A stretch of 64,000 nucleotides of DNA from Escherichia coli (GCF_003018255.1 NZ_CP027440.1); one strand, 5' to 3'; counted from the stretch's first letter, positions 1 through 32,623 are shown. Numbers and translations are program-made. The notes: generated by a model not told the origin, from the sequence alone.

Positions 1-688
1 CTGCTTCCGGTCCCGGATAGAGAAAAATGGTGGCTTCCACGCGATACGGGATGATTTCTGCGCTGCGAACCGTAAGACGGTCAGCCACCGGGCGGACGTT
101 CTCACTGTTCAGAGCTTTTTCCACCACGTCCAGCAGGTCTTTTTCTGCAGTTCCATCGCCTTCGCGGCTAAGGACAGTCAGCACCACCTCTGCAGGTGCC
201 GGGCTGGTTGCACTGGCATCCGCCACCCGACCGTCGGCGCTTCGGGCATGAAATTCATAAGCTGCAGTTGGCCCCGCAACAGAAAGCCCTTCAAAGGCTG
301 CAGGCACACGCAGGCGCAACGCTTCATCGCTTTCCATCACAGCTGCAACGGGCGGCACAGCATCATTATCAGCAGGCGTCACCGTCAGGCGTGTCACGTT
401 GTAGTTGGCAGCGAGCTGGTCAAGATCGCCGCCCATCGCGTAAGCCACCATCACCGCCTGCGCGGCTTCGTTAATGCGCTGGCGCAGAAGCAACTCACGG
501 TAAGCGTTCTCCTGCAACAATTTAGTGGCGGGTTCAGATTCCAGTTCCAGCGTGCGGATCACTGCTTCCTGCTCATCTTTCGGATGAAGCGCCACAAATT
601 CTGCCTTGCGTTCGGCAAGCAGCGTCTCAAAGTCCGGCACATCCACAATCTGCGGTGCAGGCAACTGCGAAAGGTCAATCACTGCCAT
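1..688 (-). CDS. Phage baseplate assembly protein (P2 gpJ-like), partial; runs off window start
   Basis: Minus-strand ATG at 688..686 translates MAVIDLSQLPAPQIVDV, like the gpJ N-terminus; sits after gpW in P2 order. Plus-strand ORFs here are antisense shadows. Confidence 0.8.
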   Translation of the reverse strand, partial: MAVIDLSQLPAPQIVDVPDFETLLAERKAEFVALHPKDEQEAVIRTLELESEPATKLLQENAYRELLLRQRINEAAQAVMVAYAMGGDLDQLAANYNVTRLTVTPADNDAVPPVAAVMESDEALRLRVPAAFEGLSVAGPTAAYEFHARSADGRVADASATSPAPAEVVLTVLSREGDGTAEKDLLDVVEKALNSENVRPVADRLTVRSAEIIPYRVEATIFLYPGPEA

Positions 689-1034
689 TCTCTGCTCCTG
701 TTGATACGGAAAGGGACACAGGCACACCGTTATTCCGCCGCCCGGTCAGCTCCACCACCATTGAACCGTCAAAATTGCTGTTGATGGTGATGGAATCCAG
801 CGTCAACCGTGGCTCCCAGCGACTCAGCGCCACATACACTGCAGACATGACCTGCAGGCGTAATGCCGGATTTTGTGGCTGATCTATCAGTGCCGACAGC
901 AGGGAACCATATTCCCGGCGGGCAATACGGCTACCCTGCGGTGTCAGCAGAATGTCCCGCACCGACTGGCGCAGATGATCAATATCAGTAATGACTTTGC
1001 CGCTGGTATTGTTCATCCCGCTATAAAGCGTCAT
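675..1034 (-). CDS. Baseplate protein gpW (GPW/gp25 family)
   Basis: 119 aa; position between gpV and gpJ as in P2; family-like sequence. Confidence 0.8.
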   Translation of the reverse strand: MTLYSGMNNTSGKVITDIDHLRQSVRDILLTPQGSRIARREYGSLLSALIDQPQNPALRLQVMSAVYVALSRWEPRLTLDSITINSNFDGSMVVELTGRRNNGVPVSLSVSTGAENGSD

Positions 1035-1609
1035 ACCGGGCCTCCGGTTGTATCGCCGCCTTTCAGGACGCCAGTATGCTGATGCGCATCAACCACGATC
1101 CCGTTAGAACTCATCGCTCCGCCGCCCTGGGTAACGCCACCATTGATCACCACTTCGCTGTTAATGCGCGTGCGGTCAGCCTCCAGTACAAACTCACTGG
1201 TTTTCATGGTGATGTTGTCAGCAGCCTCAATGACCATTGATTTGATGCCCCTGACATACCAGCGCCCGGTGGCGGGTTCGTATTCAAACCAGCCACCGTC
1301 AGGATGTTCTGTCACGCAGGCGTCCGCCGACGTCGACGGTGGTGCGAACTGATTCGAATAGACAGCGGGCAGCGCAAAGGCGGTTTCCAGATTGCCGCCC
1401 AGACTCAGCAGCACCACCTGCTCACCTTCCGATGGTCGCCACCATGTACGGGCATTCCCGGCACGCAGCGTCAGCCAGCTGATCCAGTTGGTTTCAAGCT
1501 CGCCCGTTTTCACCCGGCAAAGCCAGTTTTCCCTGTCCACTTCGGTGACTACCCCTGTGCGGATCAGGTTGGTGATAAGGCGCATGATTTCGGTTAATTG
1601 TGCGTTCAT
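1031..1609 (-). CDS. Baseplate spike/assembly protein gpV
   Basis: 192 aa; P2 gene order R-S-V-W-J; start overlaps gpW stop. Confidence 0.8.
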   Translation of the reverse strand: MNAQLTEIMRLITNLIRTGVVTEVDRENWLCRVKTGELETNWISWLTLRAGNARTWWRPSEGEQVVLLSLGGNLETAFALPAVYSNQFAPPSTSADACVTEHPDGGWFEYEPATGRWYVRGIKSMVIEAADNITMKTSEFVLEADRTRINSEVVINGGVTQGGGAMSSNGIVVDAHQHTGVLKGGDTTGGPV

Positions 1610-1677
1610 AGGGAAAGGTTGCCATCAGGGGAAGAAAGGCGGCAGTGCTGCAACTTGTATCAGTGCTGATACAAAGA

Positions 1678-2124
1678 TCACCCCGCCAGCCATTGCAGAA
1701 TCATGTCGCGGGTCATTGCCTCAACATCATCATTTACACCCAGCAGGCGGCGCTCTGCGTAACGGACCTCCGGTCCTTTGCGACTGACGCGATCACGCAG
1801 GCCGTAATGGTGAACACGGGCAATACGCTGCACCTTGCCTTCAAACTGTACGCTGGCAGAGTCGGCGCTGGCGGCAGTTTTCAGGTATTTTGTGGTGCGC
1901 AACTTTGCAAACATCTGACGTTTGATGCGGCCTTTTTTGCTGCGTGCTGTTACCCTGCGCGGTTCATAACTGCTGCCATCTGGATTGCGCTGCATCCTGA
2001 TATTCTGCTGCTGTGTCCGGCGCAGTTCCTGCGCCAGCTGGCGCATCATGCGGCTTCTCGTGGCTGGTTCCAGATTCGCCAGCAAGGCACTCAGCCAGTC
2101 GTCCACCTTCTGCAGTTCAGCCAC
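1678..2124 (-). CDS. Tail completion / virion morphogenesis protein gpS
   Basis: 148 aa; position and size match P2 S. Confidence 0.75.
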   Translation of the reverse strand: MAELQKVDDWLSALLANLEPATRSRMMRQLAQELRRTQQQNIRMQRNPDGSSYEPRRVTARSKKGRIKRQMFAKLRTTKYLKTAASADSASVQFEGKVQRIARVHHYGLRDRVSRKGPEVRYAERRLLGVNDDVEAMTRDMILQWLAG

Positions 2125-2569
2125 GTTTCACCGTCCACATTTCTTCAGGTTCATCGGGTTCTGCTACAGCTTCAACGCTCGACACACTGCCGTCAGTACT
2201 GACCAGCACACGTTCCGTCAATTGCAGGTTAAGGCTGATATCACAGACATCGTTGCGCAAAATATCCACCTCAAAGGTGAATAGCTTTTCCCGTAACGCC
2301 GGGTTATTGATGGCATCGGGCTGGTTATCCCGAAGCCACAGTAAAACCGGGGCCATCAGCAGATTCTGGTCGCCGCTGAAATCCTCAATCACCACGTTCA
2401 GGGTGTAGCGGTACTCCCATGACATGGAGCTGGCCCCCGTGGCAACCAGCGAACCGTTATCCACAAACAGATGCAGTTTGTCCGGGTTATTGCGGACATA
2501 AGGCACCGCTTTATTGAGGGCGTGGCGCAGGGATTGTGGTTTGTTCACTGTTTCGCTCCTGACACGCAA
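2117..2569 (-). CDS. Tail completion protein gpR
   Basis: 150 aa; the motif PDKLHLFVDNGSL resembles P2 R as I recall it; true start may lie a few codons in. Confidence 0.75.
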   Translation of the reverse strand: MRVRSETVNKPQSLRHALNKAVPYVRNNPDKLHLFVDNGSLVATGASSMSWEYRYTLNVVIEDFSGDQNLLMAPVLLWLRDNQPDAINNPALREKLFTFEVDILRNDVCDISLNLQLTERVLVSTDGSVSSVEAVAEPDEPEEMWTVKRG

Positions 2570-2801
2570 TAATCATGTCCACTTTGTCTGCACAGACCGC
2601 CCAGGCGGCCTCCGTTTCATCCAGCAACGCGTTCAGGCCACCGTTAGTGCGCGGCGCTGCCTGATCCAGCCGACACGGCGTCACTCGCGGACAACCACTG
2701 ACGGTAAGCTGCACCTCCGGTGAGTGTGGGGCGTTCCCGCAGCCGGATAATGTCAGCAGGCAAAGGAGTATCAGCCCAGCGGCGTAAATCCTCGTTCTCA
2801 C
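2511..2801 (-). CDS. Outer-membrane spanin lipoprotein (LysC/Rz1-like)
   Basis: 96 aa with N-terminal signal and lipobox LTLSGC; partly embedded in the LysB frame, as in P2 lysB/lysC. Confidence 0.6.
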   Translation of the reverse strand: MRTRIYAAGLILLCLLTLSGCGNAPHSPEVQLTVSGCPRVTPCRLDQAAPRTNGGLNALLDETEAAWAVCADKVDMIIACQERNSEQTTIPAPRPQ

Positions 2802-3072
2802 GTTTCAGTTCCTCAATCCGGTGTTGTCGTTGTCTCAGCAGTACACTGGTCTGTTCTGCTTCGGCATAGAGCCGCGCCTGCTCCCGATTATTGGTTTCAG
2901 TCAGAATGGACAGGCTGATAAGCTGGCTGTTGCTCTTTGCCAGTGCCTGGCTTTTGCTCCGAAGCTCGTCTGCCTGCGTGCTGATGGTCTGGCTGGCATC
3001 AGCCAGCCGCCACGTCTGCCAGCCCAGCGCCGCCAGTAATAACGCCAGCACAACCAGCAGCAACCGGTTCAT
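2644..3072 (-). CDS. Inner-membrane spanin (LysB/Rz-like)
   Basis: 142 aa; N-terminal TM helix then coiled-coil-like region; follows lysA. Confidence 0.7.
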   Translation of the reverse strand: MNRLLLVVLALLLAALGWQTWRLADASQTISTQADELRSKSQALAKSNSQLISLSILTETNNREQARLYAEAEQTSVLLRQRQHRIEELKRENEDLRRWADTPLPADIIRLRERPTLTGGAAYRQWLSASDAVSAGSGSAAH

Positions 3073-3446
3073 GCTGCTACCTGTTGCGCAATCTGATTAC
3101 GGATCATCCAGAAGGCAATAACGGTCAGCAGATAAAAGACCAGGGTAATAGCCCACCCCGTCCAGGCGAGGCTGACGACAATCAGCAATCGCATCACCCA
3201 GCTGATAAATACGTTTTCTTTTCGGGTAATGGTCTTTAGCAAAGATGCCCTCAACTCCTGCCAGAGCGGGCCGTTCTTAATTAACGCAGCCAGTGCTACC
3301 GGAATTACCGCCCATGTCAGCAAACAGGCTACCCAGACACCGGACGCTGCCAGTACCGGAAAAATCCCCTGCGGATACACCATTGCTGCGATCAACAGCG
3401 CCATCCATAACATCAGAAACAGCCCGCTGATTACTTTCTTTTTCAT
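3069..3446 (-). CDS. LysA-like polytopic membrane protein (lysis timing)
   Basis: About four predicted TM helices; start taken at MKKKVIS just after the endolysin stop. Confidence 0.65.
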   Translation of the reverse strand: MKKKVISGLFLMLWMALLIAAMVYPQGIFPVLAASGVWVACLLTWAVIPVALAALIKNGPLWQELRASLLKTITRKENVFISWVMRLLIVVSLAWTGWAITLVFYLLTVIAFWMIRNQIAQQVAA

Positions 3447-7627: not shown

Positions 7628-9394
7628 ATGAACACCACACTGACACCCGCAGATCTCGATCCCCGTCGGCAGGCCATGCTGCTGTACTTTCAGGGATACC
7701 GCGTAGCCCGCATTGCTGAAATGCTGGGCGAGAAAGTTGCAACCGTTCACAGCTGGAAAAAACGCGACAAGTGGGGTGACTATGGGCCGCTGGATCAGAT
7801 GCAGCTCACCACCGCCGCACGCTACTGCCAGCTCATCATGAAGGAGCACAAAGAAGGGAAAGATTTCAAAGAGATTGACCTGCTGGCGCGCCAGTCTGAG
7901 CGCCACGCGCGGATCGGCAAGTTTAACAATGGCGGCAACGAATCCGACTTAAACCCTAACGTCGCCAACCGCAACAAAGGCCCACGCCGTCAGCCGGAAA
8001 AGAATGTTTTCACCGATGAGCAGATTGAGAAGCTGGAAGAAATCTTCCATTCCTCCATGTTCAACTACCAGCGCCACTGGTGGGAAGCCGGAAAAACCAA
8101 CCGCATCCGCAACCTGCTGAAGTCACGCCAGATCGGCGCGACCTTTTACTTTGCCCGTGAAGCCCTGATTGACGCCCTACTGACCGGACGTAACCAGATT
8201 TTCCTTTCCGCCAGCAAGGCACAGGCCCACGTCTTTAAGCAGTACATCATCGACTTCGCCAAAGAAGTGGAGGTGGAGTTGAAAGGCGATCCGATGGTGC
8301 TTCCTAACGGGGCCACGCTTTACTTCCTCGGCACCAATGCCCGCACGGCCCAGAGTTATCACGGCAACCTGTATCTGGATGAATATTTCTGGATACCGAA
8401 ATTCCAGGAGCTGCGCAAAGTGGCTTCCGGTATGGCTATTCACAAGAAATGGCGACAAACCTATTTTTCCACGCCATCCAGCCTGACACACAGTGCTTAT
8501 CCGTTCTGGTCCGGTGCGCTATTCAACCGTGGGCGCAACAAAGCAGATAAGGTGGACATCGACCTGTCCCACAGCAATCTGGCCCCCGGCCTGCTGTGCG
8601 CAGACGGGCAATACCGCCAGATTGTCACCGTGGAAGATGCAGTGCGCGGCGGATGTAACCTGTTCGACCTCGATCAGTTACGCATGGAGTACAGCCCGGA
8701 CGAATACCAGAACCTGCTGATGTGCGAGTTTGTGGACGATCTCGCGTCTGTGTTCCCACTCAGCGAGCTGCAGGCGTGCATGGTGGACAGCTGGGAAGTC
8801 TGGACCGACTTTCATGCACTGGCACTGCGCCCATTTGGCTGGCGCGAAGTGTGGATCGGTTATGACCCTGCGAAAGGTACGCAGAACGGCGACAGTGCCG
8901 GATGCGTGGTGGTGGCACCGCCAGCCGTGCCGGGCGGCAAGTTCCGCATTCTTGAGCGTCACCAGTGGCGCGGGATGGACTTTCGCGCCCAGGCTGACGC
9001 CATCAAAAAACTGACCGAACAGTACAACGTGACCTATATCGGCATCGACTCAACCGGCGTTGGTCACGGGGTTTATGAGAACGTGAAAGCGTTCTTTCCT
9101 GCCGTCCGGGAGTTTGTCTACAACCCCAACGTTAAAAACGCCCTGGTACTCAAGGCCTACGACATTATCAGCCACCGCCGTCTGGAGTTTGACGCCGGGC
9201 ACACCGACATTGCGCAGTCATTCATGGCAATCCGTCGCGCCACCACCGCCAGTGGCAACCGCCCGACCTATGAAGCCAGCCGCAGCGAAGAAGCCAGCCA
9301 CGCCGATCTGGCCTGGGCAACGATGCACGCACTGTTTAACGAACCGCTGCAGGGCGAATCCGCCAATACCAGCAATATTGTGGAGATTTTTTGA
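7628..9394 (+). CDS. Terminase large (ATPase) subunit gpP
   Basis: 588 aa; P2 P-like length and sequence. Confidence 0.9.
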   Translation: MNTTLTPADLDPRRQAMLLYFQGYRVARIAEMLGEKVATVHSWKKRDKWGDYGPLDQMQLTTAARYCQLIMKEHKEGKDFKEIDLLARQSERHARIGKFNNGGNESDLNPNVANRNKGPRRQPEKNVFTDEQIEKLEEIFHSSMFNYQRHWWEAGKTNRIRNLLKSRQIGATFYFAREALIDALLTGRNQIFLSASKAQAHVFKQYIIDFAKEVEVELKGDPMVLPNGATLYFLGTNARTAQSYHGNLYLDEYFWIPKFQELRKVASGMAIHKKWRQTYFSTPSSLTHSAYPFWSGALFNRGRNKADKVDIDLSHSNLAPGLLCADGQYRQIVTVEDAVRGGCNLFDLDQLRMEYSPDEYQNLLMCEFVDDLASVFPLSELQACMVDSWEVWTDFHALALRPFGWREVWIGYDPAKGTQNGDSAGCVVVAPPAVPGGKFRILERHQWRGMDFRAQADAIKKLTEQYNVTYIGIDSTGVGHGVYENVKAFFPAVREFVYNPNVKNALVLKAYDIISHRRLEFDAGHTDIAQSFMAIRRATTASGNRPTYEASRSEEASHADLAWATMHALFNEPLQGESANTSNIVEIF

Positions 9395-10419
9395 TGGGAA
9401 AGAGTAAGAAGAACCGCGCTGCGGCGACGAAACAGATCCAGCTTAAAAGTCAAACTACAGCCGAAGCATTCAGCTTCGGCGATCCCGTTCCTGTTCTGGA
9501 CCGCCGAGAATTACTGGACTATGTGGAATGCGTACAGATGGACCGTTGGTATGAGCCGCCCGTCAGCTTTGACGGACTGGCGCGCACCTTCCGCGCTGCA
9601 GTGCATCACAGTTCCCCGATTGCAGTAAAGTGCAACATTCTGACCAGTACCTACATCCCTCACCCGCTGCTCAGCCAGCAGGCTTTTTCACGTTTTGTGC
9701 AGGACTATCTGGTATTTGGTAACGCCTACCTGGAGAAACGCACGAACCGATTCGGTGAAGTTATCGCCCTTGAGCCTGCGCTGGCAAAATACACCCGACG
9801 CGGGTTAGACCTGGATACCTACTGGTTTGTGCAATACGGCATGACTACACAGCCGTATCAGTTCACGAAAGGCAGCATTTTTCACCTGATGGAACCGGAT
9901 ATCAACCAGGAGATCTACGGCCTGCCCGGTTATCTTTCTGCCATTCCGTCAGCCCTGCTCAACGAGTCCGCCACGCTGTTCCGCCGGAAGTATTACATTA
10001 ACGGTAGTCATGCAGGCTTCATCATGTACATGACCGATGCCGCGCAGAACCAGGAGGATGTGAACAACCTCCGCAATGCGATGAAAAGCGCCAAAGGCCC
10101 TGGCAACTTCCGCAATCTGTTTATGTACTCGCCTAACGGCAAAAAGGACGGACTTCAGATTATCCCGTTGTCAGAAGTCGCAGCGAAGGATGAGTTTCTG
10201 AATATCAAAAATGTTAGTCGCGATGACATGATGGCAGCACACCGCGTGCCGCCACAGATGATGGGGATAATGCCAAATAATGTCGGGGGGTTTGGGGATG
10301 TGGAAAAAGCGAGTTTAGTGTTTGTGAGGAACGAATTAATACCCTTACAGAAAAGGATGCAGGAATTAAATAAATGGCTTGAAGATAATATATTACAATT
10401 CAAACCATATAAATTTTAA
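9391..10419 (+). CDS. Portal protein gpQ
   Basis: 342 aa; start overlaps the gpP stop; P2 Q-like. Confidence 0.9.
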   Translation: MMGKSKKNRAAATKQIQLKSQTTAEAFSFGDPVPVLDRRELLDYVECVQMDRWYEPPVSFDGLARTFRAAVHHSSPIAVKCNILTSTYIPHPLLSQQAFSRFVQDYLVFGNAYLEKRTNRFGEVIALEPALAKYTRRGLDLDTYWFVQYGMTTQPYQFTKGSIFHLMEPDINQEIYGLPGYLSAIPSALLNESATLFRRKYYINGSHAGFIMYMTDAAQNQEDVNNLRNAMKSAKGPGNFRNLFMYSPNGKKDGLQIIPLSEVAAKDEFLNIKNVSRDDMMAAHRVPPQMMGIMPNNVGGFGDVEKASLVFVRNELIPLQKRMQELNKWLEDNILQFKPYKF

Positions 10420-10460: not shown

Positions 10461-12430
<1,970 letters not shown>

Positions 12431-12459
12431 ATTTTGCCTATTTTAGGTGATAGCGCGCG

Positions 12460-12478
12460 CTCGTATCCCCGCCACGCC
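12460..12478. other. Candidate phage cos site
   Basis: Minus-strand read GGCGTGGCGGGGATACGAG; the first 13 nt match the 19-nt cohesive end of phage 186 as I recall it (GGCGTGGCGGGGAAAGCAT). Lies between the tum-like module and the portal side, as expected in the P2/186 map. Confidence 0.45.
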
Positions 12479-12526
12479 TGCCCGCTTTATGTAGTGGTTT
12501 TCATGCACCTGCATGATCTACGCAAA

Positions 12527-12546
12527 AGCCCGCCAGTTCTGGCGGG
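12527..12546 (-). terminator. Rho-independent terminator-like hairpin downstream of the DinI-like gene
   Basis: Perfect 9-bp stem GCCCGCCAG/CTGGCGGGC followed by TTTTG on the minus strand. Confidence 0.5.
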
Positions 12547-12682
12547 CCTTAGCAAAAACGATCCTCAAACGATCATGCGATCTCATGCGGCATAGACATG
12601 CACTACAGAGCTAACGCCTCGCAAGGGCTCGTTGTTCAACCTTGCTGACGCCAGAAACAAGTTCAGACGCCAGCAACGTTTC

Positions 12683-13268: not shown

Positions 13269-15710
13269 TTAATACAGGTTCCGCCACTGATCATCTTCCT
13301 GCAAACGCTGGTTCCGATAGAAGATACGCAGGCCTGCTCCTGACGGAATACTGCCTCCGCGAAGGAGTAAATCGACCTCTTTCTCGCTGCCATCAAATCC
13401 TCTGGACTTCAGCTCATACACGAGCTGCAGTCGCTGATGGTCTGTAATTCGCTGTTTGTAGTCTTTACGCCGTTTCGGTTTCACCAGGCGTAACCTTGCA
13501 GCCAGTTCCCGGCGCTCTTTTTTGCTCATACTGTGCAGGTAATCGTGCAACTCCTTGTCATCCATGCGGGTAATGTCCGTTCTGGTATCCCCATCAGCTG
13601 ATTTGTCTTTCCCTTGTTGGTTCAAATTTTCAGCAAGGGGACAGTTATTGCCACGAGTCCAAGGGGCGCAAGCGCCCTGGTCGGCTGCCGCCTCCTGAAC
13701 GTCAACGGCCTTACGAACCATTTTCCACTTCACTGCATGAGTGCAGATCTTGCCCTCTGCAATGGGTGACCAGATGCCATAAATACGAATACCGTGATCA
13801 CCATAGGCGGTCGGCTCTTCGTTGATTTCATAAGCGGTTCTGATCAAGTGATATTTGCGGGGAACCAGTACGCCGCCCTGCTTCATAATGTAGGTGGCAA
13901 AACAGCCAGCATCAGCAGCAGCCAGAATGGCATCAAGGCGCGGGTTATCCAGTACCGACGCACCTGCTTTTTTGTCACCCTGTTGCCTTGCCGCCTGACC
14001 AGCCAGCAATCGCAGTTCACGGTAAGCCTGACGCCCCGGAATGCCAAAGAAGCGGAATTGCTGAACACGATGCAGAGACGCCCAGGCATTAACGTATTCA
14101 GCATTATCACGCAGGGATTTACCCGTTTCCTTGCTGATCTCGCCAGCCAGACCACGCCCGTCAATGTTCTTACTGATGTATTTCGCGATGTAGCTTGTTG
14201 GCGTACCTTTGCGCGGGTTTATCAGCTCAGACTTAAAGCGTGGCCCCGTGTTATTACCCAGCTCCTCGCGGTCTTCACGAATGGCAAACTTACGCAGCAA
14301 AGCAGTAATGGCGCGGCGATCTTTTTTGCGCATGAAACACAACAGGTGCCAGTGAACTGTGCCGTCATGATGCGGCTCAGCCACCCGCACGCCATACCAG
14401 CGCAACCCGGTTTTGTGCATAGCCTTACGAAATGCAGCAAACATGCCGACCAGATAATCGCTGCTTTGTCTTACCGTCGCGTTTGTCCAGGTCGGGTTTG
14501 GTCTGCCGTTATTGAGCGTGGAATGGAAACGCGACGGACAGGTGATGGTGTAGAAAACGGCACAGTCACTGCGCATTTCCGCGATAAGCTCCAGACCTTT
14601 AACACAGGCCATCATCTCATTGCGGCGATGCGCCGGGTTGCTGCTGCTGGCCTTTACCACATCTTCCATATCCAGCGTGTCGCCGTTTTCGTTCACCAGT
14701 TCATGAGAACGGAAAAACTCCAGCGACTTACGGCGCTGCTCACGTTTATGCATCACGGCTTCATAGCTGACATAGGGAGATGCTTTTTTGCTGACCAGGC
14801 AGACAGCACGCAACTGCTCTTCCCGCCATTCGCAGCGCATCTTCCATAATTTCCGATACCACCAGTCGGCACACAACATACGCGCCAGCGAACCCGGAAT
14901 GAGTTCATAGGGCACGGGTTTGCGACGCTTTCTTTTCCGACGAAGTTGCTCAAACGCAGGCGGGATAACATCCAGTCGCAGGGTTTCCGCTGCCACCTTT
15001 TCCCATGTCTTGCGGATTTCTTCTGGCTTAACATCATCGGTGGCGTACAAATCACCACAAGCGGCATCAAGGCACATGCTCATATGCGCAGCTACCAGGG
15101 TGGACAGGCGTTTCACCTGATCCTGACTCATTTCAGGCAGGATCAGCAGGCCGTCCAGCCCTTCATGGCTCGCCATAAAGCGAAAAGAAGTGGATAGCTG
15201 ACTGTCGCGTACATGCTCCAGCCGTTCCAGACATGGCTTAATCGTCTCACGCAAATAGCGAGAATAAGCCTTTGGCCTGCCCAGGCTGCTGAAGTATTCA
15301 ATACGTTGCATCAGCGGCTTGCTGATATGGGAAGGCTGGGCGTTAACGTCCGCCAGAATGACCATGTCCGGATTAAAACGCTGCTGCTCATGCGCCAGCT
15401 TTGCCCGGCTAATGAGCTTATCCTGCTCCATTTCGCGTTGGACAGGATCACGGGATTCATTAAAGAAATAACGCTCCCAGACCTGATCACTCAGTGCCTC
15501 GCGGCGCAGTTGTTCCTGCTCGTTATCGGCAGCGTACAGAGTGATCAGGTTTGAAAGCGCAGAAACCGGCGCAACTTCCGCCGGGTCCAGATAAGGGTTA
15601 ATGGCTTTCTTAGGTAAATTCCACGAATAACCCCCGGCAGAATTCTCAATGCTACCGGAAGTTACACTGACAAATGGATCGGCAAGACGGCCTGTGCTGA
15701 TCTCTGTCAC
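13269..15710 (-). CDS. Replication initiation endonuclease (P2/186 gpA-like)
   Basis: 813 aa; Y-x-K catalytic-tyrosine-like region (YIAKYISKN); position as in P2/186; start overlaps the upstream stop as ATGA. Confidence 0.85.
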
Positions 15711-16717
15711 TCACAGACTCCTGCATATACACTGCTGCACACCGCTTTATCATTCATGCCTGCCAGCAGGTCAAACTGCATACCGCCCCGAGTTGTTAAG
15801 GCCCAGTCCCGATAAGTTTCAATGCCATAAGCATCAACAGTTATGACTTCGATCCGTTTTTCATCACGGCGCGGATCATGCGTGGATGGAAAGAACGTTG
15901 AATTGCCACGTCTTGAACATTCCGCAACCAGTCTTTCCCACTCAGCCACTCGGCGGATTTCTTCTGGCCAGCGTTGGAAAATCTCAGCAAGTTCTGACTT
16001 GCGAGCATGAATACATGGCATACAACCGACACGACTGCATCCCTGCATATAAAGGGGGTTAGGCTTAATGCCATGACGTTTGGCAATAGCAAACACATCC
16101 TCATGCAGCCAATTAAGGATCGGACGATAAACATGCAGGCCCAGAGTATTGTCTGCATCGTCCTCCCACTCAGGCAACAATGCACGTTCCGGTGATTCCT
16201 GCCCCCGGACTCCTTGCCAGCTGATTACCTCATCGTATTCATCCAGAGCCGGATCGATTACCTGTGTACGTATTGGTTCATGTTTTAGTTCAAAAGTGCA
16301 GAAACGAGCTTTTGTTGAAGGGAAGCGACCTTTCCACATGCACAAATCAAGAAACGGAACGCCGGTTGGTTTAAGGATTTCCAGTGCCCGGTAAATACGT
16401 TCCTCAGCCTCATCTGTCGACATACCACATTCCTCAACGAGAGAAATGGGCCACTTTTCCGCAATGAATTTACGTTTCCCTTCTATCTGGCGTGTGAAAT
16501 CCGCTTTGACGCGAATAATCTTGCCCAGCTTTGATTCCAGATAATCCAGATATTCTATTGTCTGTGGATGTTCATGACCCGTATCGGCAAATACAGAAAT
16601 ATGCGGAACATCGTTTTCAATGGCTCTTAACCATTGAGCGAGACTATCTTTGCCACCAGAAGTAGTGATGATGTTAATGGTGCTTGAAGCAAAGCAACGC
16701 GGATCGATAGCATTCAT
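15707..16717 (-). CDS. PP-loop ATP pyrophosphatase, PAPS-reductase-like
   Basis: SGGKDS PP-loop motif near the N-terminus; C-terminal Cys clusters ([18 protein letters not shown]); ATGA-coupled to both neighbours. Confidence 0.75.
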
Positions 16718-17562
16718 GCGCGTACCTCAACGGTACGGTCAGAGCCGCTGGCAAAATCGACACCAAACCACCCAGCTGATTTGGTGGCAATGATTTCTGT
16801 TGCAGATTTACTCTCGCCAGCTGACACGCCAATGCTGCGTTTTGACTTGATGTAGTGGTGAGTGAAATTGCGATACAGCGAACGGATCAGGGATGTGTCA
16901 CTGTTAGAAACAATGACCGGATGACCTTCAGATGATCGATGTTCAAGAACGGATGCCAGGTGATACTGGTCATCTTCAGTGAAGCCATCAGTGTGATAGC
17001 CGGAAAACGTACCGTCATAAGGCGGATCGCAATATACCACATCCCCCACCTTCAACATCGCCAGCGTTTCATCAAAGCTGGCGCAGATAAACGTTGCCCG
17101 CTGGGCTTTCTCTGCAAATGCGCGAATTTCTTTTTCAGGGAAATACGGATTTTTATAATTACCGTAGGGAATGTTGAAATACCCGCTCTTGTTATAGCGA
17201 CATAGCCCACGGTAACCATGACGATTGAGATACAGAAAATATACCGCTTTCATGAAATCAGTAATTTCAGTGGAGTAATTAAACTCCTGCCTTATGTTGT
17301 AATAAGCCACCTCTCTGTTTGCTTCCTCAAATAAAGCTCTGGCACGAGATATAAACGCCTCACAATCAGCAGCAACCTTTTTATAGAGGTTGATTAAATC
17401 AGGATTAATATCCGCAACCAGATAGCTGGGGTAATCCGTCTCCATCATCACAGCACAAGAACCCGCGAAAGGTTCAACCAGTCGCGGGCCAGCAGGAAGG
17501 TATTTTTTCAGTTCGGACATAATGGCGGTTTTATTACCCGCCCATTTCAGGATGGTGCTCAT
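16714..17562 (-). CDS. dam: DNA adenine methyltransferase (Dam-like, N6-adenine)
   Basis: DPPY catalytic motif and an N-terminal SAM-binding region (FAGSCAV); start at [11 protein letters not shown] overlaps the upstream stop. Confidence 0.85.
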
Positions 17563-17861
17563 ACAGCACCTCCTGCAATAACATATCCTAAAGCTTCTAA
17601 TGGGGTTAATGAGCGAATTGATAGCATCACCCATTGTTCTGAAACTGCCATGACGTCATTAACCGGAAGCACATGAGAGATAACCGCGGCCCATTCCCTA
17701 CCCGTAAATACGCCATGCTTCCATTCGCAAAGAGAAAGAACATCACCAACTTTATAGCCACGATCGTCTTTACGAAGTTCAGCCGTCTTTTGACCTGCAA
17801 CCACAGCGTTGAAATACTTAGGTGCAATTTTTAATTGATGGATACGCACAGCCCCTGTCAT
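17559..17861 (-). CDS. ASCH/DUF3850-like small protein
   Basis: About 100 aa from [44 protein letters not shown] overlap with the TraR-like gene. Confidence 0.55.
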
Positions 17862-19926: not shown

Positions 19927-20069
19927 AAGGCAACATTCCTTCTAGATATGGCTTGTGGCGAGCCGTTGTTTGTCGTGATTAGTAGTGAAGGCTCCAAAAG
20001 AACACTTCTGGTTCAACTTTAAGATCTCTTTTGGAATCTGTCAACGAATTTTGGATTTCTTTGGAGGAC
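19927..20069. promoter_or_regulatory. Lysis-lysogeny switch region (pR/pL-like)
   Basis: Intergenic region between divergent apl and cI genes; inferred from 186 architecture, no promoter elements mapped. Confidence 0.4.
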
Positions 20070-20641
20070 TTGTGGATTTCAATAGCGGCGGTAAGAAAGC
20101 CATAGAACGTTTAGTTGAAGCATATGGGTTCGGTACCCGTCAGGCTCTCTGTGATCATTTAGGTGTTTCTAAGAGCACCATGGCAACGCGCTATATGCGT
20201 GATATTTTTCCAGCAGATTGGGTAATCCAGTGCGCCCTTGAAACGGGCACCTCGCTTAATTGGCTAACAACAGGGCATGGTTCAAAGCAAGCATCAGCAA
20301 ATACAAATACTATGGAAGTTGCTAAATATGTATTATCTGATGGGGCCTTGTGTGAAGACGGTTTTTATATTTTCGATAGGGAATTTCTACCGTCGGCATT
20401 CAAGAATATTTTTGCAATCACAGATAATAATTCTGAATTTGTTTGTGATAAGGAATTTGATGATATACGTGATGGTAAATGGGTAATAAGTATTGATGGC
20501 GAAATAACGATCCGTGACATTACTCGTTTACCCGGTGGAAGAATCTTCGTCGAGGGTGGAAACAGAGCCTTCGAATGCAAGATAGAAGACATTGAAATAA
20601 TTGGTAAAATTATAAGTTTAACAGTCAAGTATGTTAAATAG
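19985..20641 (+). CDS. CI-type immunity repressor (186 family)
   Basis: HTH region ([24 protein letters not shown]) plus C-terminal domain; ORF start is probably an over-call, true start likely near the GTG at about 20070. Confidence 0.75.
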
Positions 20642-20657
20642 TACCGGGAGGAAAACT

Positions 20658-20849
20658 ATGCTTGGTAAGGTATTTTTTGTGGTTTTGTCATGTTCTTTGT
20701 TATTAAACCCACTAACTACCTATGCTAGAAATTATCCCTGTTCAGGGAAAAAGGGAGGTGTTTCTCACTGTACCTCAGATGGCAAATTTGTTTGCAATGA
20801 TGGAACTATTAGTAAATCCAAAAAAATCTGTACTAAAAACTCACGATAA
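20658..20849 (+). CDS. Small secreted cysteine-rich protein (moron)
   Basis: 63 aa with signal peptide [23 protein letters not shown] and a mature part with six Cys; AT-rich; sits between cI and int. Confidence 0.5.
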
Positions 20850-21037: not shown

Positions 21038-22081
21038 ATGGCAGTACGAAAACTAACCACAGGGAAATGGCTTTGCGAATGTTACCCCGCCGGACGCAGC
21101 GGGCGTCGCGTGCGTAAACAGTTCGCTACCAAAGGCGAAGCATTAGCTTTTGAGCGTCACACGATGGAGGAGGCAGAAGCTAAGCCTTGGCTTGGTGAAT
21201 CGGTAGACCGTCGAACTCTACAGGATATCGTTGAACTCTGGTTCAAACTGCACGGCAAATCCCTGACCGCTGGCGAGCATGTTTACGACAAGTTGATACT
21301 GATGGTCGATGCTCTCGGAAATCCCCTCGCCACCGATCTAACATCCAAAATGTTCGCGCACTATCGCGATAAGCGCCTGACGGGTGAAATCTACTTCAGC
21401 GAAAAATGGAAGAAAGGAGCCAGCCCGGTAACTATCAATCTGGAGCAAAGCTATCTGAGTGGGGTCTTTAGCGAGTTAGCCCGACTCGGTGAATGGACAG
21501 CACCAAATCCACTGGAGAACATGCGTAAATTCACCATTGCCGAAAAAGAAATGGCCTGGCTGACACATGAACAAATCACAGAGCTTCTGTTCGACTGTCA
21601 ACGCCAAAGCCCCCTGCTCGCTCTTGTCGTCAAAATCTGCTTGAGCACCGGAGCACGTTGGCGCGAAGCTGTGAACCTGACACGTTCTCAGGTCACGAAA
21701 TACCGAATCACATTTGTCAGAACTAAGGGCAAAAAAAACCGCAGCATTCCGATCAGCAAAGAGCTGTATGAGGAAATTGTTGCCCTAGACGGCTTCAAAT
21801 TATTTACTGACTGCTACTTCCAGTTTTTAGCCGTGATGGATAGAACCTCGATCGTACTACCACGCGGGCAACTTACCCACGTTCTACGCCATACGTTCGC
21901 AGCACATTTTATGATGTCCGGCGGGAACATTCTTGCTTTGCAAAAAATCCTGGGCCACCACGATATAAAAATGACTATGCGCTATGCACATCTTGCCCCT
22001 GATCACCTTGAAACAGCACTGCGTTTCAATCCATTAGCCACACTTTCCACTAAAGCAACGAACCTTGAAGCAAACAGCTAA
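21038..22081 (+). CDS. int: Tyrosine integrase (P2/186 family)
   Basis: C-terminal catalytic region HVLRHTFA...MRYAHL; start taken at MAVRKLTTGKW (347 aa). Confidence 0.9.
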   Translation: MAVRKLTTGKWLCECYPAGRSGRRVRKQFATKGEALAFERHTMEEAEAKPWLGESVDRRTLQDIVELWFKLHGKSLTAGEHVYDKLILMVDALGNPLATDLTSKMFAHYRDKRLTGEIYFSEKWKKGASPVTINLEQSYLSGVFSELARLGEWTAPNPLENMRKFTIAEKEMAWLTHEQITELLFDCQRQSPLLALVVKICLSTGARWREAVNLTRSQVTKYRITFVRTKGKKNRSIPISKELYEEIVALDGFKLFTDCYFQFLAVMDRTSIVLPRGQLTHVLRHTFAAHFMMSGGNILALQKILGHHDIKMTMRYAHLAPDHLETALRFNPLATLSTKATNLEANS

Positions 22082-22121
22082 CACGTTAAAATAGCGCACC
22101 TTCCCTTAATAGAGTAAAGCT

Positions 22122-22607
22122 ATGTCCGGCATTGCGGATTTTTTTTCAGTTGTGGCTGCAGTTGGGGCAGTTGTAATCATCCCTGCTGCATATCAACCTA
22201 TTTATCAATCATCTAAAACAAAAAACTATGAGTCTTTGGTAAAAGTTGATTGGGGCAATGAAGGTGACATCTCTACTTCTTATCCACATTTCATACATAT
22301 ACAGTTAGAGAAAGCAGAAGGTGATTGGACTTTTTCAGGAGAACTCATCTGCACAATTAATCCCGAAGAAAAGTTCGTCATTCAGGGTAAACTGAGATGT
22401 CTTAGGACTATAGATGCTGTAATACATCGTACTATTGGCTGGCGGGCTATTGAGATTGGAAAGGCTAAAATCAAGTATGACCGCCGCACAAATCAGTGTC
22501 GATTTATCCCACAAAAGGTTGCTCAGAAGAAACTTGAGACTGATTGCGAACGTGCAATCTTCAGCACCAGCCTCCCTTTATGGGGAAATGACAAATCTCC
22601 GGTATAA
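22122..22607 (+). CDS. Membrane-anchored hypothetical protein (moron between int and the prophage end)
   Basis: 161 aa with one N-terminal TM helix (FFSVVAAVGAVVIIPAAY); AT-rich codon usage unlike phage core genes. Confidence 0.5.
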   Translation: MSGIADFFSVVAAVGAVVIIPAAYQPIYQSSKTKNYESLVKVDWGNEGDISTSYPHFIHIQLEKAEGDWTFSGELICTINPEEKFVIQGKLRCLRTIDAVIHRTIGWRAIEIGKAKIKYDRRTNQCRFIPQKVAQKKLETDCERAIFSTSLPLWGNDKSPV

Positions 22608-22709
22608 GTGGCGACAAAGTGGCGGCAGCGGTTGGCATTGTCCCGTAATCGCCACTCCTTATCACTAACCTAACTTATTGATTGTCTTGCAACTCATTGT
22701 TATTTCTAA

Positions 22710-23699
22710 CCCATTTACATAAATGGCAATAAAGTTGAGCTATACGGCAAGATGGTTGGTGAGCGAATTCTGACCGACCGTGAAAATGGTGAAAAAGGCG
22801 ATAATTCTCAAGATACCTCTTATGCCCGTGTAGGCGTGAAAGGTGAAACTCAGATCAACCCTGAACTGACTGGTTACGGTCAGTTTGAACTAGACCTGGA
22901 AGCATCAAACAGACACAACCCTGACCAAACTCGTTTGGCATATGCTGGTTTGAGTTACAAAGATTTTGGTTCATTCGACTACGGTCGTAATGTCGGTGTC
23001 GCGTATGATGCAGAAGCATTTACTGATATGTTTGTTGAGTGGGGCGGTGACTCATGGGCTGGTACTGACCTGTTCATGACCAACCGTACCAACGGTGTTG
23101 CAACCTATCGTAACACAGATTTCTTTGGCATGGTTGAAGGTCTAAATTTTGCTCTGCAATATCAGGGTAAAAATGAAGGTACAGGCAACTACAAAGCAAA
23201 TGGCGATGGCCATGGTTTATCTGCAACTTACACTATTGACGGTTTCTCATTTGCTGGTGCTTATGCAAACTCTGACCGTACTGATTGGCAGTCTGGTGAT
23301 GGTAAAGGCGAAAGAGCCGAAGTTTGGGCGTTGTCAACAAAATATGACGCTAACAATGTCTATGCTGCTGTGATGTACGGTGAATCTCACAACATGAATT
23401 CCGACGACGGTGATGTTGTGAACAAAACACAAAACTTCGAAGCTGTTCTGCAATATCAGTTCGACTTTGGTCTGCGTCCATCCATCGGTTACTCCTATTC
23501 TAAAGCACTGGACGTAGCAGGTTACAAAGATTCTGATCGTCTGAACTATATTGAAATCGGTACCTGGTATTACTTCAATAAGAATATGAACGTATATACC
23601 GCTTATCAGATCAACCTGCTTGATAAGAGTGATTATGTTCTCGCTCATGGACTGAACACCGACGACCAACTGGCAGTTGGTATCGTCTACCAGTTCTAA
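22710..23699 (+). pseudogene. General porin gene (OmpC/OmpF/OmpS family), 5'-truncated
   Basis: Reading frame aligns to OmpC from about mature residue 3 onward (PIYINGNKVELYGK, then the C-terminal AVGIVYQF), but the signal peptide and promoter are absent and an in-frame stop lies at about 22707. Position upstream of hchA matches yedS in K-12. Confidence 0.7.
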
Positions 23700-31154: not shown

Positions 31155-31244
31155 TGGCGGAGAGAGGGGGATTTGAACCCCCGGTAGAGTTGCCCCTACT
31201 CCGGTTTTCGAGACCGGTCCGTTCAGCCGCTCCGGCATCTCTCC
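31155..31244 (-). tRNA. serU: tRNA-Ser (anticodon CGA)
   Basis: Minus strand reads GGAGAGATGCCGGAGCGGCTGAACGGACCGGTCTCGAAAACCGG...CTCTCCGCCA with a long variable arm. Confidence 0.9.
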
Positions 31245-31337
31245 GTTCAGATGGTTGCCATGATGCCAGGAAATTTGGCATTTTAACAGTCCCTGTCCGT
31301 GCAATTTTGTTCAAGTGACGAGTTTGCGAGCAAAACG

Positions 31338-32135
31338 ATGATTAAGTGGCCCTGGAAAGTACAAGAATCAGCACATCAAACTGCCCTTCCCTGGCAGGAA
31401 GCACTATCGATCCCCCTTTTAACGTGTCTGACGGAACAGGAACAAAGCAAATTAGTCACTCTTGCCGAACGTTTTTTACAGCAAAAGCGGCTTGTTCCTT
31501 TACAGGGCTTTGAACTGGATTCATTAAGAAGCTGCCGGATAGCACTTCTATTTTGCCTGCCCGTTCTGGAGTTAGGACTGGAATGGCTGGATGGTTTTCA
31601 TGAAGTCTTAATTTATCCTGCGCCATTTGTGGTCGATGATGAATGGGAAGACGATATCGGTCTGGTGCATAACCAACGTATTGTTCAGTCAGGTCAGAGC
31701 TGGCAGCAAGGGCCTATCGTTTTGAACTGGTTGGATATACAAGATTCTTTTGATGCTTCTGGTTTTAACCTGATTATTCATGAAGTCGCTCATAAGCTGG
31801 ACACCCGTAACGGCGATCGCGCCAGCGGAGTTCCCTTTATTCCGTTGCGTGAGGTTGCTGGCTGGGAACACGATCTTCATGCTGCAATGAACAACATTCA
31901 GGAAGAAATCGAATTGGTTGGCGAGAATGCGGCGAGCATTGATGCTTATGCTGCCAGTGATCCTGCTGAATGTTTTGCCGTACTTTCTGAATATTTCTTT
32001 AGCGCCCCAGAACTTTTTGCTCCACGTTTCCCTTCATTGTGGCAACGTTTCTGCCAATTTTATCAACAAGATCCTTTGCAGAGACTGCATCACGCTAATG
32101 ATACAGACTCGTTTTCGGCGACGAATGTTCATTAA
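31338..32135 (+). CDS. mtfA: Mlc titration factor A
   Basis: Start MIKWPWK; HEXXH-type motif (HEVAHKLD). Confidence 0.9.
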
Positions 32136-32235
32136 TTAACAACTTTGCAGATTAATTAACCAATTGAAATGACTTATGAAATTTAGTGTTGACAGACAAA
32201 GTACCGCTAAGTAATATGCGCCCCGTTCACACGAT

Positions 32236-32311
32236 TCCTCTGTAGTTCAGTCGGTAGAACGGCGGACTGTTAATCCGTATGTCACTGGTTCGAGTCCAGT
32301 CAGAGGAGCCA
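32236..32311 (+). tRNA. asnT: tRNA-Asn (GUU)
   Basis: TCCTCTGTAGTTCAGTCGGTAGAACGGCGGACTGTTAATCCG...AGGAGCCA. Confidence 0.95.
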
Positions 32312-32623
32312 AATTCTAAAAATTCGCTTTTTAGCGCAATGTCACTGACCTTAGTTGAGCATTGCTTTTTAACGGATAGCGGGTTTTTGACATCTTAAGC
32401 GCCCTCGACCTTTATGGTTGAGGGCGTTTTGCTATGAACGCCATCACCATTTTCCCCTCGATTACAAAACTTGAGTAATTCAGTAGTCTCCCCTCTTGCA
32501 ACTCACACCCAAAACTGCTTAACGAAAAGTTATTAATTTTCAATCATATTGCTATCAGGATTTACATTTTTTCGCTGTGCTAGAAAGGGCGCATTTATGT
32601 TAGCTCGTTCAGGGAAGGTAAGC

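Follow-up and report, generated by a model that had tools for sequence, protein, structure and literature searches.

What does a 186-like prophage carry between its integrase gene and its attachment (att) site, and what could such a gene do for the lysogen? The question is raised by a 64,000-nucleotide (nt) stretch of Escherichia coli DNA (GCF_003018255.1, NZ_CP027440.1), hereafter the window, the left half of which is a 186/P2-like prophage. An open reading frame (ORF) of 161 amino acids (aa) with an ATG start, here named ORF161, was found at positions 22122-22607 on the plus strand, and a first-pass annotation made from the nucleotide sequence had described its product as a membrane-anchored moron. 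The comparisons reported here indicate that ORF161 is a functional accessory gene of the moron type in a fixed slot of a 186-like prophage, and that its product is a reasonable candidate for a new phage-defence factor.

ORF161 and the cargo slot in the 3′ end of int

ORF161 is a real gene under purifying selection. The ORF listing gave exactly the coordinates and ATG start of the first-pass annotation, and the product is identical to RefSeq WP_000014148.1, which is annotated as 'hypothetical protein'. The reading frame, length and N-terminus are kept in homologues with 55-68% identity from other assemblies. Compared by the Nei-Gojobori method with the homologue at locus L003, ORF161 had a pN (proportion of nonsynonymous differences) of 0.20 and a pS (synonymous) of 0.70, a ratio of nonsynonymous to synonymous substitution rates (dN/dS) of 0.117 with synonymous sites near saturation, and against the homologue at locus L013 the synonymous sites were saturated. 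Because homologues are conserved, dN/dS is this low and sequence motifs are kept in distant members, ORF161 is more than a chance ORF. The AT-richness noted at the outset is also borne out, with a GC content of 40.9% (34% at third codon positions), where int has 49.3% and the window as a whole 48.5%, and the base composition thereby departs from that of the flanking phage genes, as in moron cargo. A scan for terminator-like sites, in which the regional count was not above that of shuffled sequence, picked out a short GC hairpin and then seven T in a row at 22124-22146 on the plus strand, inside the first nine codons of the gene.

The position of the gene between int and the att-side junction was confirmed, as int ends at 22081 and the junction lies at ~22721-22727, but the slot is not simply intergenic, for the cargo has been inserted within the final ~14 codons of the ancestral int gene. 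The C-termini of Int were compared for the window and for prophages H1, PE15, CFT073 and H32. In H1, where the slot is empty, Int ends in ...RFNPLATLPSGDKVAAAVGITP, and the att arm opens with the last 14 codons of the gene, 42 nt that there encode the true Int C-terminus, SGDKVAAAVGITP, up to the stop codon. In the window Int diverges after ...RFNPLAT(L) and closes with a new tail of 11 residues, STKATNLEANS (nt 22046-22078). The left breakpoint follows the NPLAT codons and the right breakpoint falls just before AGTGGCGACAAAG, and between them stands the inserted cassette, consisting of the new Int tail, a 40-base-pair (bp) spacer and ORF161. Directly after the ORF161 stop codon comes the remnant sequence AGTGGCGAC...CCGTAA, the orphaned 3′ end of the ancestral int (Table 1). 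The same remnant, with the tail SGDKVAAAVGI(T/V)P before its stop, follows other cargos, and each cargo variant gives Int its own short tail.

The slot is defined by the distance and content between ...NPLAT and GTGGCGACAAAGTGGCGGCAGCG. In other prophages it holds an 89-aa gene in CFT073, HS and ETEC4089, a 104-aa ORF in H32, and a Panacea-domain antitoxin with a 251-aa protein in PE15 and many others; these three cargos share identical left (...NPLAT) and right (GTGGCGACAAAG) junctions, and at least five slot states with common breakpoints could be told apart when loci L002, L005, L024 and L027 were compared. Since other prophages use both breakpoints for different cassettes, the alignments identify the 3′ end of int as a reusable cargo site, spliced into a dispensable Int tail. 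This int-tail slot with its orphaned Int scar is documented whatever the function of ORF161, and through it more than 1,000 E. coli prophages could conveniently be mined for other cargo.

ORF161 is a rare occupant of the slot. The att arm was detected in 1,142 of 5,426 complete E. coli genomes, mostly at ~78-88% identity and always at the int-proximal end of a prophage, and ORF161 in five of the 5,426 (99.7-99.9% identity, together with int), which is just five of the 1,142 genomes with the arm. It is absent from sequenced phages that have the same int-att module, and in Klebsiella phage 4LV2017 int and att arm are contiguous. The description of the gene as moron or cargo is thus upheld by its presence in five of 1,142, by the other or missing cassettes of sister prophages and by its deviant composition. 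That it lies in a typical place for cargo stands in part: a recent preprint reports that 3% of the recognisable defence systems of P2-like phages lie between int and att, which makes the interval a minor defence hotspot, but it terms this cargo position 'atypical' for integrated elements (bioRxiv 10.64898/2026.02.27.708500).

At the main cos-proximal hotspot, the other ORF161 prophages carry SIR2/ATPase and HIRAN genes (strain 89-3156) or hypothetical genes (EC21Z-137), and ORF161 assorts independently of that hotspot. A link between ORF161 and the retron of the window was considered and rejected, because this main-hotspot cargo differs among the prophages that hold ORF161.

Predicted membrane anchor and fold, and the protein family

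The single N-terminal transmembrane (TM) helix proposed earlier was recovered as a Kyte-Doolittle 19-residue maximum of 2.25 at residues 4-22, the second-best hydrophobic segment of the protein scoring 0.45. The hydrophobic stretch covers ~19-21 residues and runs on into a basic juxtamembrane helix that reaches approximately residue 40 (nt 22241). No lysine or arginine (K/R) is found on its N-terminal side (MSG...D), and a K/R cluster follows the helix, with K32, K34 and K41 on its C-terminal side. One strong hydrophobic helix is present in all 14 aligned family members, in which 0-1 K/R (three in P0018), and mostly an acidic residue as well, precede the helix and 2-7 K/R come within the 15 residues after it; P0011 alone (1/14) has a second hydrophobic segment, in what is likely a mis-called N-terminal extension. 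A Sec or lipoprotein signal is unsupported, because the N-terminus of ORF161 has neither a basic n-region nor an L-x-x-C lipobox. From this charge distribution, read by the positive-inside rule, the N-terminus would be outside and the soluble domain in the cytoplasm, and ORF161 is therefore predicted to be a bitopic inner-membrane protein with a reverse signal-anchor, ~3 residues outside and its folded domain cytoplasmic.

Structure prediction with AlphaFold2 (AF2) was unusable when five close sequences were supplied (predicted local distance difference test, pLDDT, 47) and became usable after distant members were added, reaching a pLDDT of 77.6 and a predicted template modelling score of 0.65 with eight diverse sequences. 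The model has a continuous helix at residues 2-40, eight antiparallel strands at 42-157 and a short helix at 141-146. A search of AFDB50 with this model returned uncharacterised proteins only; because the nearest of these (from Salmonella, Flavobacterium and others) align over their full length, it is suggested that they share the layout of TM helix plus barrel. Among the viral models of BFVD a Foldseek search gave nothing significant, the match to a viral S-2TMbeta protein being weak (E 0.2). The barrels that entered the fold comparison were avidin/streptavidin, calycin/lipocalin, Gid4/Gid10, nitrophorins and the designed proteins 6czj and 8ah9; identity to avidin/lipocalin-type and designed barrels is 8-11%, with no signature motif. 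As a prediction, the fold class of a small, eight-stranded, up-and-down barrel is well supported, but assignment of the modelled barrel to any single barrel family is not.

By sequence, the soluble domain proved as devoid of recognisable motifs as had been described. No match to ORF161 was found in Pfam, PHROGs, NCBIfam or PADLOC, even with permissive thresholds up to E 10 (PHROG, no families at E up to 0.01; PADLOC, none at E up to 10), nor among PDB sequences by profile search, nor in 50,697 phage records by tblastn, and tblastn against a plasmid collection gave one weak Acinetobacter match only. An exhaustive HMMER scan of 1.84 billion representatives returned three true relatives, and iterated word-indexed searches of 5.8 billion clusters returned 17 family clusters at E up to 0.1, 16 of them at E up to 5e-5, from Escherichia, Salmonella, Pantoea, Acinetobacter and metagenomes. 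In the alignment of 14 sequences W44, N46, E47, G48, G73, G106 and W154 are invariant and D49, R108 and K118 nearly so, and distant members of 20-30% identity retain the W-x-NEGD and GWR motifs and the C-terminal tryptophan. One family member gave a faint match to Hol_Tox (E 8.6e-3), which is driven by the TM segment. These searches place ORF161 in an unannotated protein family that has no sequence relative of known function. The remote-homology searches and structure prediction that the first-pass annotation had proposed thus gave no sequence match and a predicted eight-stranded β-barrel, and ORF161 is not a conserved structural or replication protein.

Possible functions of ORF161

In phage 186 the lysogenic cI-int transcript runs from the promoter pL. 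In the window, cI is the first of a lysogenic string in which the YdcA-family gene, int and ORF161 follow on the plus strand in the same direction. ORF161 is likely made in the lysogen, since it is co-stranded after cI and int, which are transcribed from pL in phage 186; its transcription would come from read-through of cI-int or be driven by a weak promoter within the new tail of int. A promoter-like site is located inside that tail, 30 nt upstream of the ORF161 ATG, and no terminator-like site was found 3′ of the ORF161 stop on the plus strand.

The function that we favour, tentatively and at rather less than even chances, is that of a sensor-effector in abortive infection, because S-2TMbeta is the closest architecture with a known mechanism. 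The cytoplasmic barrel would be the sensor and would bind a trigger, either a small molecule (a nucleotide, for instance) or something that the phage makes. On binding or losing the trigger, ORF161 would switch to an oligomer, the TM helices of which would compromise the inner membrane and abort the infection, so that the lysogen is protected against other phages. As no signal synthase is linked to ORF161, it would work as a stand-alone module of a single gene. The further claim that it founds a '1TM-beta-barrel' family of stand-alone defence proteins, in which one chain senses infection through its barrel and disrupts the membrane through its lone TM helix with no dedicated synthase, as a minimal counterpart of Cap15 and OptE borne in an exchangeable slot, appears unlikely.

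The surroundings of the family are consistent, by association, with a role in conflict, as they are mobile and rich in defence and toxin-antitoxin (TA) genes. An overview of the contexts of the 17 clusters found all of them mobile or variable, P0010 excepted. They include prophage cargo beside umuDC, with AbiH in one such locus (L019), positions beside HEPN and HipA genes or beside MazE/PIN, an integrase island with Mrr and FRG, and a site beside the small terminase gene where the family gene is paired with a protein resembling a PD-(D/E)xK nuclease. Upstream of two distant family members, one on a phage contig of 140 kb and the other in the remnant of a Pantoea prophage, a conserved protein of 191-194 aa is encoded. 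This possible nuclease partner shows a D...E-x-K-like motif (FIDVVY...FLEIK), and it has no Pfam or PHROG match and no homologue in the window. In Acinetobacter a co-directional membrane protein is encoded 27-71 nt downstream of the family gene, a 150-aa coiled-coil protein with two TM segments in some loci and an unrelated 249-aa multi-TM protein in others, as would be expected of a modular membrane component. A universal partner gene was sought among these neighbours and rejected, since those of Pantoea and the phage differ from those of Acinetobacter, and ORF161 is alone in E. coli and Salmonella. No non-coding RNA was detected in or around the locus with Rfam at E up to 0.1.

Several points weigh against the sensor-effector model. 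No S-2TMbeta or Cap15 profile matches ORF161 by sequence, nor does any family member hit the Pfam S-2TMbeta model, the protein has one TM helix instead of two, and it has no cyclase neighbour. The seven invariant residues (two W, three G, N and E) may have no role beyond structure, in closing the barrel and forming turns, and the AF2 model was built on eight sequences, with two of its five models poor. The promoter-like site of ORF161 is no better than chance, the regional count of such sites not exceeding the expectation from shuffled sequence. P0010 is flanked by ordinary metabolic genes, for purine catabolism and urease, and lacks a mobile context, and guilt by association is weak for a family of ~17 clusters.

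Protection need not involve killing, and ORF161 could act in superinfection exclusion (Sie) by blocking the entry of phage genomes, for which it would engage from the cytoplasmic side an inner-membrane component used by phages to translocate their DNA. A small, membrane-anchored product of a single gene, co-oriented with cI and int and plausibly made in the lysogen, carried in the cargo slot of a temperate phage and with no linked partner in E. coli or Salmonella, would suit this role. However, the folded domain is predicted to lie in the cytoplasm with ~3 residues outside, which is less suited to a block on the periplasmic side, no PHROG or Pfam match to a known Sie protein was obtained, and a barrel of ligand-binding type is not a known Sie fold. 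Exclusion is a rather unlikely function.

A role outside defence, in lysogenic conversion or fitness, is likewise doubtful; here the barrel would bind a host ligand or protein at the membrane and alter envelope physiology, stress tolerance or colonisation. The morons of prophages often have functions other than defence, eight-stranded barrels of the avidin/lipocalin type as a rule take up ligands that are small and hydrophobic or resemble cofactors, P0010 stands amid genes for purine catabolism and urease, and PADLOC does not recognise ORF161. Most contexts of the family are, however, prophage ends, integrase islands and islands rich in TA or defence genes, a TA pair of the Panacea type takes up this slot in sister prophages, and the extreme rarity of the gene (5/5,426) is as expected of fast-turnover conflict genes.

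It is improbable, in our view, that ORF161 is an orphan effector or guard, the barrel of which would bind a cyclic nucleotide that either an infecting phage or a CBASS, Pycsar or type III CRISPR system of the host has made; in a variant of this idea the protein would be held inactive by its ligand, as OptE is in Panoptes, and the phage would piggy-back on host signalling. The combination of a TM segment and a cytoplasmic β-barrel is that of Cap15 and OptE, no linked synthase was seen in the three ORF161 prophages examined, and W44, E47, D49, R108 and K118 are compatible with a nucleotide pocket. Against this, its sequence is not homologous to S-2TMbeta, its fold match is of a generic kind, and the need for a signal-making host fits poorly with a scattered occurrence in Escherichia, Salmonella, Pantoea and Acinetobacter.

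Very improbable is an addiction or toxin-like element that stabilises the prophage or cassette as a membrane toxin curbed by an unannotated antisense RNA or small ORF. The product is predicted to insert into the membrane, the Panacea pair in the same slot of relatives is of TA type, and one family member has the faint Hol_Tox match; but a protein of 161 aa with a folded domain of 115 residues is unlike type I toxins, the gene is alone in E. coli and Salmonella, and no antitoxin candidate was found, Rfam giving nothing and the sole antisense ORF (22335-22514) not having been looked at in homologues. Finally, a spurious or decaying ORF in junk DNA beside the att site, as might be read from the AT-richness, from an annotation no better than 'hypothetical' and from an internal deletion of 22 codons in one cluster (P0002), is effectively refuted by a dN/dS of 0.12 with saturated synonymous sites, by retention of full length and invariant motifs down to 20-30% identity in several genera, and by a compact, confidently predicted fold.

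The prophage and comparison with known systems

The features of the prophage, of its junction with the host and of the family loci are collected in Table 1. The crossover at the int-proximal end was placed by alignment with an rcdA-site lysogen, a porin-site lysogen and the intact porin gene, attL lying outside the window. Past the junction the DNA is 98.4-98.8% identical to the E. coli region of the yedS-type porin, hchA and hprSR. Strain A37 has the porin gene intact, with its start 86 nt before the junction, and it is also intact in Nissle-like strains; insertion of the prophage leaves a 5′-truncated porin gene, followed by hchA and hprS/hprR. The module of int, ORF161 and att arm (99.7-99.9% identical) lies in the porin gene here and beside rcdA/ybjK at loci L001 and L029; in EC21Z-137 and 89-3156, two ORF161 genomes examined, the prophage is beside rcdA and not in the porin gene, and prophage H1, which has a diverged int, is also at the porin site. 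As the two host sites have in common only ~TAAATGG at the junction, relaxed or dual usage of att sites by the prophage is suggested.

Table 1. Features of the prophage, the ORF161 cassette, the host junction and related family loci. Positions are those of the window, except for loci with an L number, which have their own numbering.
Feature	Position	Strand	Evidence or remark
P/Q, among the capsid and terminase genes	7628-10419		
Main cos-proximal hotspot cargo, 586-aa RT-Toprim (reverse transcriptase-Toprim)	10461-12221	-	PADLOC RT-Toprim_I-C, E 1.5e-216
Replication gene A	13269-15710		
PAPS (phosphoadenosine phosphosulfate)-reductase/DndC/SspD-like gene	15707-16717	-	PADLOC SspD, E 1.8e-23
Dam-type orphan methyltransferase gene	16714-17634	-	
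TraR/DksA, cII, Fil and Apl-position gene	after Dam methylase, before cI	-	
186-type CI repressor gene	20072-20641 (RefSeq start)	+	PHROG 4, E 2e-46
YdcA-family gene, 63 aa, in cI-int interval	20658-20849	+	YdcA family/hypothetical annotation; PHROG 6000
Tyrosine integrase, 347 aa	21038-22081 (RefSeq start)	+	PHROG 1, E 1e-74
Inserted cassette: new Int tail, 40-bp spacer, ORF161	22043-22606	+	alignments with H1 and other-cargo prophages
Promoter-like site TTGAAG, 16 nt, TAAAAT	22065-22092	+	consensus scan 9/12, weak
Transmembrane helix of ORF161, codons 4-22	22131-22187	+	Kyte-Doolittle 19-mer maximum 2.25
Predicted eight-stranded up-and-down β-barrel, codons 42-157	22245-22592	+	AF2 model
Orphaned ancestral int 3′ end, now non-coding	22607-22648	+	reads SGDKVAAAVGIVP, then stop
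Conserved att arm, 120 bp	22607-22726	+	inverted repeat AGTGGCGA...TCGCCACT
Prophage/host junction, attR crossover	~22721-22727		...ACATAAATGG / CAATAAAG... (TAAATGG / CAAT); three-way alignments
3′ part of yedS-type porin gene, host DNA	22727-23699	+	cut by prophage at ~codon 28
Conserved 191-194-aa upstream gene (possible partner) of distant family members	L007 7253-7837; L009 9277-9852		
Acinetobacter downstream membrane genes	L018 8505-8957; L021 8488-8940; L014 8549-9298		

For cI the ORF listing puts the start at a GTG at 19985, against 20072 in RefSeq, and the gene is annotated as 'phage repressor protein CI' in a 99.9%-identical prophage segment of another genome. Between cI and int lies another slot of variable content, which holds a 323-aa hypothetical gene in CFT073 (L024 1080-2051) and a pair encoding an AAA ATPase and a DUF4276 protein in strain H32 (L027 28-1761). 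The PAPS-reductase-like gene overlaps the start of the Dam methylase gene, and the pair sits between gene A and TraR/DksA. The RT-Toprim protein is assigned by sequence to a retron of the Ec67/Retron-Eco2 type; no Rfam msr/msd model matched its upstream region (12222-12680), and the position is that described for retrons of 186-related prophages (PMC6868368). Downstream of the prophage, one tRNA-Ser(CGA) and four tRNA-Asn(GTT) genes lie at 31155-44703, a cluster that could provide integration sites for islands.

Among known systems, the S-2TMbeta effectors (Cap15 of CBASS, OptE of Panoptes) come closest to ORF161 in architecture. The barrel of Cap15 binds a cyclic nucleotide, which leads to disruption of the inner membrane, OptE disrupts the inner membrane once an inhibitory ligand is removed, and both are thought to be oligomeric when active (PMC12657218). 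Like the layout predicted for ORF161, these proteins have an N-terminal anchor and a cytoplasmic barrel of ~100-115 residues, and they too are found in phage-defence loci and prophages. They differ in their obligate two-pass TM element, for which ORF161 has a single helix, and in the CD-NTase/SMODS or mCpol gene that is missing from the ORF161 operon and the prophages examined; moreover, ORF161 is matched neither by the Pfam model nor by the PADLOC CBASS models or Cap15 PDB sequences, and its fold similarity to them is no better than that to unrelated eight-stranded barrels. On this comparison ORF161 would work at most like an S-2TMbeta effector and is not a member of that family.

HK97 gp15, P22 SieA and T4 Imm and Sp are small inner-membrane products of single genes that protect the lysogen and are encoded in accessory positions. 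ORF161 differs from the Sie proteins (these and Cor and Llp) in that it has no sequence or profile similarity to them and in its folded domain, which is predicted to be a cytoplasmic β-barrel, and it is not a member of any described Sie family. With avidins and lipocalins ORF161 has its predicted fold class in common. Avidin, lipocalin and Tp0435-like barrels are secreted, periplasmic or lipoprotein binders, and 6czj and 8ah9 are artificial, whereas the barrel of ORF161 follows a reverse signal-anchor without a cleavable signal peptide and is predicted to be cytoplasmic. ToxS shares the bitopic plan of an N-terminal TM helix and a lipocalin-like barrel, but its barrel is periplasmic and it has ToxR as a partner, while ORF161 is predicted to have the opposite orientation and has no ToxR-like partner.

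As a genetic object, ORF161 is an ordinary hotspot moron of a P2/186-like prophage, and a hypothetical membrane protein in such a place will not surprise a specialist. It resembles the hotspot cargo of P2 and 186 (old, tin, Z/fun; retrons Ec67 and Ec86; PARIS) in being a variable, AT-rich cassette exchanged at fixed breakpoints, and sister prophages have the Panacea (PanA/SocA) pair in this very int-att slot. It differs from that cargo as a single gene of an unannotated family with no PADLOC model, and in lying outside the major cos-proximal hotspot, spliced into the 3′ end of int. Should it have no phenotype, it is one more ORFan moron; should it prove defensive, it would enlarge the defence repertoire by a very small membrane system of one gene and would show that the effector design of TM helix and β-barrel works without a linked cyclase. 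ORF161 is a good and cheap candidate for plaque screens, given a predicted layout like that of Cap15 but with no cyclase, an extremely rare family and a cleanly delimited int-tail slot.

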